Made by a program: the position numbers and the translations under genes
Notes under the pieces: generated by a model
The model's input: the letters and a program-made list of their open reading frames with translations, nothing else
Told to the model about the DNA's origin: nothing
Databases searched by the model: none
In this document: one piece after another, positions 49,288 through 61,504 of the stretch
Layout: every line of letters begins with the position of its first letter
How positions within the stretch are numbered: the first letter of the stretch is position 1
From: Alphaproteobacteria bacterium
GTDB taxonomy: Bacteria > Pseudomonadota > Alphaproteobacteria > CACIAM-22H2
DNA length: 64,000 bases
Reading direction: 5' to 3'
Assembly (NCBI GenBank): GCA_041690495.1
Contig: JAWLHE010000007.1
Span: 50,165-114,164, forward strand

Positions 49288-49414
49288 CGTACGCTCAAGC
49301 TGCCCCCGCGAAGCATTGAATGGTCTTTGTCGTTGCGGCTATAGTGCCGCGCGCCGTCACGGACGCATGGCAAGTCTTCGGCCCCGCCATGTACCGCGAA
49401 CGCCGCATTCCGGT

Positions 49415-49491
49415 CGGAGCGTAGCGCAGCCTGGTAGCGCATCTGCCTGGGGGGCAGGGGGTCGTGGGTTCAAATCCCGCCGCTCCGACCA
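49415..49491 (+). tRNA. tRNA-Pro (anticodon GGG)
   Basis: Cloverleaf read by hand: acceptor CGGAGCG/CGCUCCG, D-arm GCGCAGCCUGGUAGCGC, anticodon loop CUGGGGG (anticodon GGG with G37), T-arm GUGGGUUCAAAUCCCGC, discriminator A, encoded CCA. Confidence 0.9.
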
Positions 49492-57049: not shown

Positions 57050-57376
57050 CTAAGCCTCGGTGAGTAGTGCTCGCCCTTCGGGCGTCAGACGGCAGACCAG
57101 CCAATCCGGCTTGAGCGGGTTGGCGAACCATTGTTCAGCCCAGCCCTGCTCGATGCAAGCGCGGATCGTGCGGGCATCCACCTGCTTGCCGTCCGCGTCG
57201 AACAGCGGCAGCTTGCCGCCGGGCTGGCCGAGGCCGGAGGAAAGCCAGGCGCGTTGTGCGTCGGTTGGCTGGCCGGGCGCCGATGGGAGACCGCGGGGCC
57301 GCTTCGGCCACGAGGAGTCGGGTTGGGCCTCGCGCCGCGGGCGGAACGGAACCACGGGATTCGCCGGATCGGACAT
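57050..57376 (-). CDS. Hypothetical protein, translationally coupled to downstream MFS gene
   Basis: Stop at 57050 abuts the MFS start at 57048. Pro/Arg-rich N-terminus and a globular C-terminal part. No domain recognised. Start chosen at MSDPANP (57376); the longer frame to 57433 is possible. Confidence 0.4.
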   Translation of the reverse strand: MSDPANPVVPFRPRREAQPDSSWPKRPRGLPSAPGQPTDAQRAWLSSGLGQPGGKLPLFDADGKQVDARTIRACIEQGWAEQWFANPLKPDWLVCRLTPEGRALLTEA

Positions 57377-59220: not shown

Positions 59221-60573
59221 TCAGACGCGCGCCTTCTTTTTGGCAGACGTCTTCCCGGCGGCACTCTTCGGCACCGCGGCCCGCAGGGCCTGATCGAGAT
59301 CGGCGATGAGGTCGTCTGCGTTTTCGATGCCGACCGACAGGCGGATCACGTCGGGACCGGCGCCGGCCTTGACCTGCTGCTCCTCGGTGAGCTGGCGATG
59401 GGTGGTCGATGCGGGATGGATGATCAGCGAGCGCGTGTCGCCGATATTGGCGAGATGCGAGAACAGCTCGACGCCCTCGACCACCTTCACGCCCGCCTCG
59501 TAGCCGCCCCTGACACCGAAGGTGAAGACCGATCCGGCGCCCCTGGGCAGGTATTTCTTCGCGAGCTTGTGATACGGGCTCGATTTGAGCCCGGCGTACG
59601 ACACCCAGGCGACGGCCGGATGGCCTTCGAGGAACGCCGCCACCTTCTGCGCATTCGCGACGTGGCGCTCCATGCGCAGGTGCAGCGTCTCGATGCCGGT
59701 GAGCGTCAGGAAGGCGTTCATCGGCGCCATGGCCGGGCCGAGATCGCGCAGCGCCACCGCGCGCGTCTTCATGGTGTAGGCGAAATCGCCGAATGTCTCG
59801 GCGAAGTTGAGGCCGTGGTAGGCCGGATCGGGACCGGCGAGGGTCGGGAACTTGCCGCTGGCGCCCCAGTCGAATTTGCCGGATTCGATGACCGCGCCGC
59901 CCATGGAGGTGCCGTGGCCGGACAGGAACTTGGTCGTCGAATGGACGACGATGTCGGCCCCCCATTCGAACGGCCGGCACAGCCAGGGCGAGGCCATGGT
60001 GTTGTCGACGATCAGCGGGATGCCCGCCTTGCGCGCGATCGCCGCGACCGGCTCGATGTCGACGATGATGCCGCCGGGGTTGGCGAGGATCTCGACGAAG
60101 ATCGCCTTGCACTTCGGCGTCAGCGCCTTGCGGAAATTCTCCGGCTCGGTCGGATCGACGAAATGGCACTTCCAGCCGAACTTCTTGAAGCTGTGTGTAA
60201 ACTGCGTGACCGAGCCGCCGTAGAGATTGCGGCTGGCGACGAACTCGTCGCCCGGTTCCATGAGGGTGAAGAACGCGAGCAGCTGCGCCGCATGGCCCGA
60301 CGCCGCCGCAACCGCGCCGCGGCCGCCTTCGAGGCTGGCCAGCCGCTCCTCGAGCACGGCCACTGTCGGGTTGCCGATGCGGGAGTAGATGTAGCCAAAG
60401 GTCTGCAGGTTGAAGAGCGAGGCCGCGTGGTCGGCATCGTCGAACACGTAGGACGTGGTCTGGAAGATCGGGGTGTTGCGCGCCCCGGTGGTCGGGTCGG
60501 GCGTGGCACCGGCATGGACGGCGAGGGTCTCGAGTCCGAACCCCTTCGGCTTGGCACGGCTGTCGTCGGGCAT
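59221..60573 (-). CDS. metY: O-acetylhomoserine aminocarboxypropyltransferase (O-acetylhomoserine sulfhydrylase)
   Basis: Cys/Met-metabolism PLP enzyme family with the MetY-type length. PLP-lysine context (STTKFLSGHG), plus N-terminal GFGLETLAVHAG and TPIFQTTSYVF. Start chosen at MPDDSRAK (60573). Confidence 0.9.
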   Translation of the reverse strand: MPDDSRAKPKGFGLETLAVHAGATPDPTTGARNTPIFQTTSYVFDDADHAASLFNLQTFGYIYSRIGNPTVAVLEERLASLEGGRGAVAAASGHAAQLLAFFTLMEPGDEFVASRNLYGGSVTQFTHSFKKFGWKCHFVDPTEPENFRKALTPKCKAIFVEILANPGGIIVDIEPVAAIARKAGIPLIVDNTMASPWLCRPFEWGADIVVHSTTKFLSGHGTSMGGAVIESGKFDWGASGKFPTLAGPDPAYHGLNFAETFGDFAYTMKTRAVALRDLGPAMAPMNAFLTLTGIETLHLRMERHVANAQKVAAFLEGHPAVAWVSYAGLKSSPYHKLAKKYLPRGAGSVFTFGVRGGYEAGVKVVEGVELFSHLANIGDTRSLIIHPASTTHRQLTEEQQVKAGAGPDVIRLSVGIENADDLIADLDQALRAAVPKSAAGKTSAKKKARV

Positions 60574-60764
60574 GTCGTTTCTCCGGGTCAACTCAGGCGG
60601 TCTGTCTAGCACAACGGTGTGAGAGGGTCACCGGCGCGTCAGTTGGGGCGGCGCGGCTTACGAAATCGCAAGGCATTGATCTACAAGAGGTAACTTGGCT
60701 GCTTCATTGCTTCACCGCGTTTTGCAGTTTGCTGCCGCACGCTCGGGCCCCGACGCCTGTTCCG

Positions 60765-60809
60765 CTGTTTCATCTGTTTCAGCCGTTTCGGCTGTTTCAT
60801 CGTTTTACG
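60765..60809. repeat. Five tandem 9-bp repeats (consensus CYGTTTCRK)
   Basis: ctgtttcat ctgtttcag ccgtttcgg ctgtttcat cgttttacg, read directly in the divergent metY/GNAT intergenic region. Confidence 0.6.
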
Positions 60810-60852
60810 CGGGTCTGCAGAATGACCGCCTTCGGTTCAGGTGCTGCAAAGG

Positions 60853-60887
60853 ATTACGCCCGCCCGGCGAGGCCGGGCGGGCGTAAT
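60853..60887. repeat. Perfect 16-bp GC-rich stem-loop
   Basis: attacgcccgcccggc-gag-gccgggcgggcgtaat, seen directly. No flanking U-tract. Confidence 0.6.
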
Positions 60888-60997
60888 TCTCCGGGCAAGA
60901 GTTCAGCACGATGCCGGCCGGGACGGAATGGGCTTTCTTGACTCAGGATCGGTTTCCGTCCCCAAAAGGACTCGCGAGGAGACAGGCAAGAGGCGCC

Positions 60998-61504
60998 ATG
61001 ACCGGCGACACCGTGCATCCCGTGCTGGCGGAGGCCGCCGACAGGTTGGCGGTCGAGCGGTTGCTGCAGGTCCATCTGCGCGAGCTCTCGGGCTATCGCA
61101 CCGCTCCGGCAACCGACGTTCATGCCTACCCGTATCTCGATCGGTACTGGACCGAGCCGGACCGGCGGGCCTTCCTGATCAGGCCGGGCGATCAGGTTGC
61201 GGGCTTCGCCCTCGTCAATGCCTGGGCGCCATCGGGGCTGCCGGTGGAGCGCGCCATGGCCGAGTTCTTTATCGTCCCGGGCCAACGGCGGTCAGGAATC
61301 GGCACCCGCGCGGCCGTGGAGATCATCGCGGGCCTGCCGGGCGTCTGGGAGATCGGCATGCTGGCCGCGCACGGCGCAGCGCAGGCCTTCTGGACCCATG
61401 TGCTAAGGCAGATGCCCGGCACCGTGCCGAGATGGATCGAGGGCGACGGACGGCGCTGGTCAGGCCGGATCCTCAGATTCCAGAGCACGGGGCGATGCAG
61501 GTGA
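60998..61504 (+). CDS. GNAT family N-acetyltransferase
   Basis: Acetyl-CoA-binding motif A-like QRRSGIGTRAAVE, with GNAT beta-strand context FALVNAW. Start chosen at MTGDTVHP. Confidence 0.65.
   Translation: MTGDTVHPVLAEAADRLAVERLLQVHLRELSGYRTAPATDVHAYPYLDRYWTEPDRRAFLIRPGDQVAGFALVNAWAPSGLPVERAMAEFFIVPGQRRSGIGTRAAVEIIAGLPGVWEIGMLAAHGAAQAFWTHVLRQMPGTVPRWIEGDGRRWSGRILRFQSTGRCR

Follow-up and report, generated by a model that had tools for sequence, protein, structure and literature searches.

A conserved module of short repeats, a GC hairpin and an IHF-like site as a candidate control region upstream of metY in uncultured alphaproteobacteria

Introduction

MetJ operators consist of tandem, abutting 8-bp units that occur in variable number upstream of methionine-biosynthesis genes, the unit (met box) being the palindromic AGACGTCT. 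In E. coli, distal repeated response-regulator sites precede narG (NarL heptamers, IHF, FNR) and ompF (OmpR F1-F4, IHF), and the OmpR half-site reads TGAAACA. Arrays of heptads are coated by the omega repressor. At the RNA level, TRAP binds the (G/U)AG repeat leader of the Bacillus trp operon, and a further parallel is CsrA, which binds GGA repeats. BldC coats arrays of short direct and inverted repeats (PMC5859096).

In many alphaproteobacteria, sulphide enters methionine mainly through direct sulfhydrylation by MetY. In Rhizobiales and Rhodobacterales, metY is under control of SAM-II (SAM_alpha), which is found only in these two orders and not in Rhodospirillales (Leyn et al. 2014, PMC4239095). 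For Rhodospirillales only SahR is listed, the motif of which is a 20-bp palindrome, and no metY regulator has been described for Rhodospirillales-like lineages (PMC4239095). The MetR motif is ATGAA-N5-TTCAT, while MetJ, whose motif is treated as a tandem repeat, is reported only from gammaproteobacteria (PMC4239095).

Here we analyse the region upstream of metY in a 64-kb stretch of alphaproteobacterial DNA (the window) together with related loci. Both the repeats and the hairpin of this region prove to be real and recur in uncultured relatives among the alphaproteobacteria, and the repeats are most likely binding sites of a candidate regulator.

Results

The metY locus and its core promoter-like element

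The gene downstream of the module (Table 1) has a product that matches the Pfam family Cys_Met_Meta_PP (1.4e-133), and the top one of 8000 homologues is 90% identical and named O-acetylhomoserine (thiol)-lyase. Its ATG is at position 60573 on the minus strand. A GNAT-like gene, assigned by a weak family match, starts at 60998 on the plus strand. The intergenic gap (60574-60997) has 424 bp, and a reading of the sequence confirms what the first-pass annotation had described, a divergent gap with repeats and a hairpin upstream of metY. The GGAG ribosome-binding site is aligned in most of 13 metY loci.

Table 1. Features of the metY upstream region in the window. Coordinates are those of the window; sequences are given in the sense of metY.
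Feature	Position	Strand	Sequence or remark	Basis
Block A, conserved promoter-like block	60891..60939	-	AAGAAAGCCCATTCC-N-CGGCCGG-N4-GTGCTGAACTC	nhmmer profile
GC hairpin	60850..60890	.	arms ACGCCCGCCCGGC/GCCGGGCGGGCGT, 3-nt loop	repeat search
Distal array	60756..60809	-	TAAAACGA TGAAACAGC CGAAACGGC TGAAACAGA TGAAACAGC GGAACAGG	sequence, repeat finders, motif matrix
39-aa ORF made by the 9-nt repeats, judged non-coding	60681..60800	-	MKQPKRLKQMKQ...	ORF list, comparison
Conserved segment adjoining the proximal pair	60716..60732	-	GCAAACTGCAAAACGCG	identical in window and L072
Proximal tandem pair	60699..60715	-	GTGAAGCAA-TGAAGCAG, 8-nt period	present in every module locus
IHF-like site	60669..60681	-	GATCAATGCCTTG, one mismatch (at W) to WATCAANNNNTTR	aligned ATCAA
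Weak, degenerate inverted copy at the +7 position	60661..60669	-	GCGATTTCG	motif matrix
P2, core promoter-like	60603..60631	-	GTGACC (60626-60631), 16-nt spacer, TGTGCTAGACA (60603-60613)	13-locus alignment
Ribosome-binding site	60581..60584	-	GGAG, 7 nt 5' of the metY ATG	read from sequence
metY, gene downstream of the module	59221..60573	-	O-acetylhomoserine sulfhydrylase	ORF list and Pfam

The element closest to the gene, P2, has the segments TGACC and TGCTA-A, which are invariant or nearly so and hold a fixed spacing in 13 metY loci, including those without repeats. It lies about 35-60 nt before the metY ATG and is followed by GGAG. P2 resembles the promoter of the tRNA in the window, TTGAAT-N17-GCTATAGT. 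The alphaproteobacterial form of a sigma-70-type promoter has a TTGAC-like -35 and a GCTAnA-like -10 hexamer 16-18 nt apart, and the sequence conserved in the 13 loci, GTGACC-N16-(TGTG)CTAGAC, may be of this type. Nothing was found at P2 by an E. coli-type promoter scan, the putative -10 element TAGACA lacks the usual final T, and the exact Caulobacter-type promoter pattern has no match in the 64-kb window. A sigma-54 reading of P2 was rejected by eye, as the GG/GC spacing is wrong and there is no conserved match. P2 probably represents the basal metY promoter, which would give a leader of about 25-30 nt; the long GC-rich leader that had been assumed on the metY side is not borne out.

Conservation among related loci

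Related loci were collected from the contigs of the closest MetY proteins, by a DNA-pattern scan, and by a search with the neighbouring GNAT gene. The closest MetY proteins (84-90% identical) come from soil metagenomes and from MAGs labelled Rhodospirillales or Alphaproteobacteria. The metagenome scan with the pattern GCTARACA-N20-45-ATGCCYGACGACAGC returned only 4 loci, 2 of which were new. In total there are eight distinct upstream regions that carry the module, the window and seven others: the window, L072, L075 (= L076, L077, L079, L080) and L081 form one part of the set, and L057, L063, L062 (= L070) and L064 (= L065) the other. Where the gene is present, MetY is 87-90% identical. Downstream synteny is constant (MFS, CutA1, a 108-aa gene, MFS); the upstream neighbour varies and may be a GNAT, CYTH/CHAD, DUF1330 or hypothetical gene.

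The elements follow each other in the same order in all eight regions, while copy number and spacing change. This is the outcome of the comparison of orthologous metY upstream regions that the first-pass annotation had asked for: repeats, hairpin and order are kept in seven other regions. The window is the outlier of the eight, having no good inverted partner, no T-run after its hairpin and a mismatch in its IHF-like site. For these three reasons, the copy in the window may be partly degenerate, or it may work only via direct repeats.

Repeats are absent from L066, L067, L071, L069 and L058-61, and in the module-less loci with P2 the gaps are only 190-225 nt. No module was found in more distant metY loci (61-83% identity).

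A displaced arrangement is seen in L068: two TGAAAC pairs lie 1.35 kb upstream of metY, preceded by a different hairpin and separated from metY by an inserted gene. For the 113-aa ORF that follows these repeats, a single near-identical fragment exists among 5.8 billion proteins, and Pfam returns no match. The ORF has no family and provides no sign of a second target gene.

The distal array

On the plus strand, positions 60765-60809 read CTGTTTCAT CTGTTTCAG CCGTTTCGG CTGTTTCAT CGTTTTACG. The five tandem 9-bp repeats reported at this place are thus borne out by the sequence itself, by Tandem Repeats Finder (60760-60799, period 9, 4.4 copies, 77% matches) and by a separate repeat search (four copies, spaced 9 nt apart). 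Of the five units, the fifth is degenerate, as is an additional unit, CCTGTTCCG, at 60756-64. The octamer common to the module is TGAA(A/G)C(A/G)G, which in the distal array takes the form TGAAAC(A/G)G in the sense of metY.

Across the module loci, the array has 2-9 copies with a spacing of 8-10 nt and retains the TGAAAC core. It consists of 5-6 units at 9 nt in the window, of nine perfect units at 8 nt in L062, of two units at 8 nt in L057 and L063, of seven units at 8-10 nt in L072 and L075, and of two units at 9 nt plus scattered units in L081.

Allowing at most one mismatch, the repeat motif occurs 16 times in the 64-kb window, compared to 5.9 expected, and in none of 100 shuffles were there at least 16 occurrences. 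Four of the 16 matches fall into the metY gap, and there are no other motif clusters in the rest of the window. In the related loci, about 0.47 Mb in all, motif clusters and hence a second target were likewise not found, with the exception of L068.

A literature search for the unit sequence returned nothing relevant. Matches to the array obtained by blastn in a plasmid collection are coding GCGGAAACA repeats (Ralstonia) or traD repeats (E. coli) and were rejected as chance similarity; the MetY homologues of that collection are at most 64% identical.

The hairpin and block A

In the sense of metY, block A comes first, then the GC hairpin and then the distal array. The arms of the hairpin (60850-60868 and 60872-60890) have 19 nt and are 95% complementary. 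Its inner 16 bp (60853-60887) are perfect, so that the repeat search agrees with the perfect 16-bp GC stem-loop noted before. The hairpin sequence occurs a single time in the 64-kb window. It was also correctly described as lacking a U-tract: there is no clean T-run on either strand, the tail being TAATCCTTTGC in metY sense and TAATTCTCC in antisense, and a simple terminator scan makes no call. With respect to intrinsic terminators, the window has the GC-rich stem-loop and lacks the T-run after the stem. The hairpin is present in 8 of 8 loci, with invariant outer arms (CGCCCG/CGGGCG) and an inner stem that varies and pairs in each of them. In L057, L063 and L064 the sequence TTTTG comes after the stem, and in L081 (CGCTTTTCG) and L075 a T-rich tail, so that the T-run is a feature of some relatives only.

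Block A has a consensus of about 45 nt, AAGAAAGCC-RTTCC-N4-CGGC-N-CSG-N4-TGCT-N-AACTC. An nhmmer profile gives one match per module locus and none elsewhere in 0.53 Mb. The GG-N10-GC spacing within the block is fixed in seven of the eight loci, the exception being L062, which has no GC. When block A is read as a sigma-54 promoter, equal scores are obtained at many unconserved positions. The block is also without the -11 A of the sigma-70 -10 element.

Proximal pair, IHF-like site and inverted copies

The proximal pair, TGAAGCRG-TGAAGCRG, has an 8-nt period in all eight loci, is located about 125-145 nt before the metY ATG (-141/-133 to -125) and is the most position-constant part of the module. 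The conserved segment next to it is represented in L057 and L063 by GCAAATGCAAACTTGCG. At a distance of 17 nt from the pair, again in 8 of 8 loci, the ATCAA core of an IHF-like site is found at the same aligned place. The IHF consensus used is WATCAANNNNTTR, and its full 13-mer is present in five of the eight loci. The module thus carries the consensus of an IHF-binding site, and binding of IHF is predicted.

In the relatives, inverted copies of the unit (CTGYTTCAC and variants) occur only +7, +18 or +28 nt after the ATCAA core. With these steps of 10-11 nt, they lie on the same face of the DNA helix. In the window, the motif matrix score is negative at +7, +18 and +28, and none of the candidate partners is strong. 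The weak copy at +7 belongs to a GCGATTTCG-N-GCC segment on the minus strand of 60660-60674, which is the GCGAUUU-N-GCC segment seen in the initial inspection and is indeed present.

Several other readings were rejected. In the window and in L081, a sigma-54-like TGGCTGCTTCATTGCT overlaps the proximal pair in antisense, but the other sublineage does not conserve it, and the conserved pieces ATCAAT and GTTCC, inspected by eye as FixK/FNR, LexA (GTTC-N7-GTTC), MetR or CcrM (GANTC) sites, show no fit across loci.

Discussion

A proposed control region acting at the level of DNA

Our best explanation, which we hold tentatively and at slightly less than even confidence, is that the region is an upstream control region of metY in which repeated sites for a candidate regulator are combined with an IHF bend and a short-leader promoter. 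From the elements and from their observed order, spacing and conservation we infer promoter function, IHF binding and the existence of a regulator, which might act by activation or by repression. The module would be lineage-specific, comprise about 370 nt and act on the DNA level. Transcription of metY would start from a proximal housekeeping-type promoter, GTGACC-N16-TGTGCTAGACA, with a leader of about 25-30 nt. All octamer copies, that is the fixed pair, the variable distal array and, in the relatives, the inverted copies near -35, would be sites of one sequence-specific regulator, and the duplex TGAAGCAGTGAAGCAG is its predicted binding target. The IHF-like site would bend the DNA and thereby bring upstream-bound regulator into contact with regulator on the inverted, helically phased sites at the promoter side. 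The GC hairpin and its conserved flank may be the upstream edge of the module; most likely, the hairpin would serve as a two-way transcription stop which insulates the control region from the upstream gene. The suggestion of the first-pass annotation that the repeats are iterated binding sites for a regulator is supported, the TGAAAC core, the hairpin and their order being kept in the seven other regions. The model is further favoured by the common order of elements in eight regions with different upstream neighbours, by the conservation of P2 in module-less loci as well, and by the identity of the module between L057 and L063 (89%), which exceeds that of fourfold-degenerate metY sites (81%) and of the stretch just upstream of block A (47%).

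Some observations count against the DNA-level model. Apart from L068, there is no second target in the 64-kb window and in the related loci; the 8-10 nt spacing of the distal array is not helical; the window is without a good inverted partner; and TAGACA is without its final T, with the E. coli-type scan being blank.

Action at the level of RNA

As block A is promoter-like and aimed at the array, the array may be transcribed. An alternative that we consider unlikely is built on this: block A would be a promoter, P1, the transcript of which crosses the hairpin (as a 5' stem-loop or leaky terminator), (UGAAAC)n would be a platform for an RNA-binding protein, the pair and the inverted copy would form a hairpin, and the resulting leader of about 330 nt, or a small RNA, would control metY. 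A specific version is improbable in our view. According to it, the block A transcript with its stem-loop and 4-11 UGAAAC units would be bound by a TRAP-like multimeric protein which senses methionine, SAM or sulphur, and the hairpin of unit and inverted unit would switch metY.

One argument for RNA is that both arms change together in three independent comparisons. L057 has GCG/CGC where L063 has GCA/TGC, in all three copies, the sequences being otherwise 89% identical; L062 and L064 share AACA/TGTT, and L064 has GGAACA/TGTTCC. For such co-changes of upstream and inverted copies, base pairing is a simpler account than protein binding. For the pair region, folding gives a hairpin of 85 nt with ATCAAUG at its tip (L072, L057 and L064; -39 to -42 kcal/mol), and several arm mismatches are G-U in metY sense. 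In most loci the motif units are predicted to be more unpaired (in the window 0.60, compared to 0.34 for the rest), copy number and spacing vary as in protein-sponge RNAs, and block A is conserved with a fixed internal spacing.

However, folding energies show no consistent strand preference for the whole module; the antisense strand is more stable in 5 of 8 loci, and in L075, L081 and L063 its advantage amounts to 10-20 kcal/mol. The covariation term of RNAalifold is about zero (+0.64). Double changes affect 3 of 16 pairs, and this value, like the absent covariation and the absent strand bias of the minimum free energy, comes from eight sequences, which are too few. The array is located 3' of the terminator-like hairpin and therefore cannot control that hairpin, and no terminator follows the long hairpin. 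P2 is conserved alone in the module-less loci, block A does not have the -11 A of a sigma-70 -10 element, and there is no Rfam match. Partner positions quantised in steps of 10-11 nt and a fixed IHF-like site are of the DNA type, as RNA pairing gives no reason for such steps. We favour the DNA-level model because of these steps, the fixed IHF-like site, the near-zero covariation, the missing strand preference and the placement of array and P2.

Neutral repeats, mobile elements and other readings

The repeats might also be without function. The units would then be a slippage minisatellite, the inverted copies would have arisen by quasi-palindrome template switching, and the persistence of both would be due to linkage with metY. 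The variation of copy number between 2 and 9 speaks for this, and the nine perfect 8-nt units of L062 are typical of recent slippage. The inverted partner is lost in the window, the L068 version is displaced and degenerate, and the module-less relatives L066, L069 and L058 manage without repeats. Template switching between quasi-palindromic arms could even mimic covariation. We nevertheless consider this improbable. Spacers, period and copy number drift around a constant TGAAAC core (in L072 and L075 the spacers diverge to 8, 9 or 10 nt), which argues for selection on the units. Across eight lineages the pair and ATCAA hold their positions, although identity at fourfold-degenerate metY sites is only 67-81%, and between L057 and L063 the module is more conserved (89%) than these sites (81%). 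The view that the repeats are a small microsatellite or neutral slippage product, which had been left open initially, is not borne out: with repeats and hairpin conserved in relatives, neutral slippage alone is disfavoured.

With its short repeats in direct and inverted orientation and its IHF-like site, the module resembles the ends of transposons. It may be asked if it descends from the end of a mobile element (MITE or transposon), either as a relic or by domestication, in which case the inverted octamers would be terminal repeats, the units transposase sites and the IHF site a part of the end. Presence within the clade is patchy, and the homology between L057 and L063 starts abruptly, exactly at block A (47% identity upstream, 89% from block A to the ATG). 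We consider this origin highly improbable, as each locus has a single copy in the same position with respect to metY, as 0.53 Mb contain block A and the repeat cluster nowhere else, as neither a transposase gene nor a target duplication was seen, and as the octamers are far shorter than known transposase sites.

A SAM-II or other SAM/SAH riboswitch in the metY leader has hardly any probability left, and this reading is effectively refuted, although metY is a core SAM-II target in Rhizobiales and Rhodobacterales (PMC4239095). The first-pass annotation had itself doubted SAM-II, and the covariance-model check that it called for justifies the doubt. A permissive Rfam scan (E<=10) of 60200-61300 gave only spurious miRNA-type hairpin matches and no SAM family, a scan at gathering threshold over the whole window and eight related loci gave one tRNA only, the predicted leader of 25-30 nt is too short for a riboswitch, and SAM-II is absent from reports on Rhodospirillales (PMC4239095).

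A coding function of the repeats, for a small basic protein or for a leader peptide that contains methionine, is equally remote and is refuted by the comparison of loci: the 39-aa ORF (60800-60681, minus strand) is intact from ATG to stop, repeats MKQ and has its frame preserved by the 9-nt period in the window, but its frame is not conserved in the orthologous regions, since in L072 the reading frame from this start is closed after three codons and with the 8-nt period of L057, L062, L063 and L064 no reading frame can be held, and its ATG has no Shine-Dalgarno sequence.

Comparison with described systems

The module shares with the MetJ met boxes that tandem abutting 8-bp units in variable number are found upstream of a methionine-biosynthesis gene, and the 8-bp period is exact in the fixed pair and in the arrays of L062, L057 and L063. 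In contrast to MetJ, the unit is TGAARCRG and not the palindromic AGACGTCT, the units are located 75-200 bp upstream of the -35 without promoter overlap, inverted copies and an IHF-like site are added, and the distal array of the window has a 9-bp period. The abutting 8-bp units of a MetJ operator are found (the pair, in 8 of 8 loci), while the unit is not close to AGACGTCT and MetJ is reported only from gammaproteobacteria (PMC4239095). Concerning MetR and SahR, ATGAA occurs inside the units, but there is no TTCAT 5 nt off and no short-range palindrome. SAM-II acts at the same gene in the same bacterial class and serves the same regulatory need, whereas here there is no match to its covariance model, which describes a pseudoknotted fold with a conserved AAAGC box, the predicted leader is too short and the conserved elements are upstream of the promoter. 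As their defining sequences or models were tested and not found, the module is outside MetJ, MetR, SahR and SAM-II.

With narG and ompF the module has in common a set of short sites that are non-palindromic and lie well upstream, an IHF-like site placed between these and the promoter, and further sites by the -35, and the OmpR half-site resembles the unit found here. It differs in the period of the distal array, which is 8-10 bp and not 10-11 bp, and in the class of gene, and no two-component system is evident nearby. Arrays of the omega repressor and of BldC likewise consist of a variable number of non-palindromic units of 7-10 bp, direct and inverted, which are cooperatively bound by a small protein, but they differ in sequence, lie over or directly beside promoters and belong to Firmicutes plasmids or Streptomyces. 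If transcribed, the module would resemble the TRAP leader in having a 5' stem-loop followed by many short, irregularly spaced repeats upstream of an amino-acid biosynthesis gene; in contrast to it, the repeats follow a terminator-like hairpin without overlapping it, and the unit has 6-8 nt rather than 3 nt. Control regions of this general kind are known, and the module is a variant specific to its lineage.

An array which varies between 2 and 9 copies in close relatives, next to a fixed core of pair, IHF-like site and partner, is an unusual natural case. If the module were to act as RNA, it would represent a new class of protein-binding leader. The defined 8-nt recognition unit could serve as bait for isolating the regulator and as a basis for regulon prediction. 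For Rhodospirillales-like alphaproteobacteria, the module provides a concrete and conserved candidate for the missing control of metY.

The metY upstream module and its relatives

On the strand opposite metY, the proximal TGAAGCRG pair of the module reads as TGGCTGCTTCATTGCT, a good sequence match to a sigma-54-type -24/-12 element (GG-N10-GC, TTGCT). Of the other loci with the module, L081 has this 16-mer without any change and L072 has a weaker version; no such match over the pair, antisense to metY, was found in L057, L063, L062 and L064. As the local example of a housekeeping promoter we used TTGAAT-N17-GCTATAGT, which precedes a tRNA gene in the window.

In the window, the upstream end of block A, the conserved promoter-like block at the upstream edge of the module, is flanked on both sides by a perfect 9-nt inverted repeat (GGGACGGAA / TTCCGTCCC), which was not seen in the sequences of relatives. 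The sublineage of L057 and L063 has additional GC hairpins, GGGGCGGCTTGAGCCCGCCC and GGCGGGTTGAAACCCGCC, in the stretch from block A to the proximal pair, the latter with a TGAAAC unit inside its loop, and L063, compared with L057, carries a 45-nt insertion.

A gene of 107-113 aa with no Pfam match is kept in close relatives with and without the module. It is oriented divergently from cutA, and the gene immediately after it encodes an MFS transporter.

Features in the window and in compared loci
Feature	Locus	Position	Strand	Remark
tRNA promoter example	window	49310-49345	+	tRNA gene at 49415-49488
107-113-aa gene	window	57050-57376	-	equivalents in L057, L062-L064, L066-L069
Sigma-54-type match	window	60696-60711	+	
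Inverted repeat	window	60920-60928 / 60954-60962		
Additional GC hairpins	L057	2680-2720, 2790-2830		equivalents in L063
TGAAAC pairs	L068	1-160		
GCGGAAACA units	L074	1455-1545		megaplasmid

Similar repeats at other positions

In L068, two TGAAAC pairs (TGAAACGgTGAAACG ... TGAAACAcTGAAACAg) are located 1.35 kb upstream of metY and are preceded by a hairpin other than that of the module (CCCTCTCCCG-TTTA-CGGGAGAGGG). Between these pairs and metY there are an oppositely oriented gene of 191 aa and an orphan 113-aa ORF, for which no family was found. In the plasmid collection searched by blastn, the sole similarity to the distal array consisted of eight GCGGAAACA units within long overlapping ORFs of the Ralstonia syzygii megaplasmid NZ_CP115945.1. 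They were judged to be a coding repeat that resembles the array by chance.

Variation and contig ends

Near-identical contigs from different samples (L075 versus L076, L077 and L079) differ at two positions upstream of metY, the first directly preceding the inverted partner (gcCTGCTTCA versus gtCTGCTTCA) and the second within the promoter spacer. The same upstream region is the end point of several metagenome contigs, that of L078 ending in mid-hairpin and those of L064, L065 and L067 ending 190-320 nt upstream of metY. The assemblies may have been broken by the hairpin or the repeats, or these may vary within populations.
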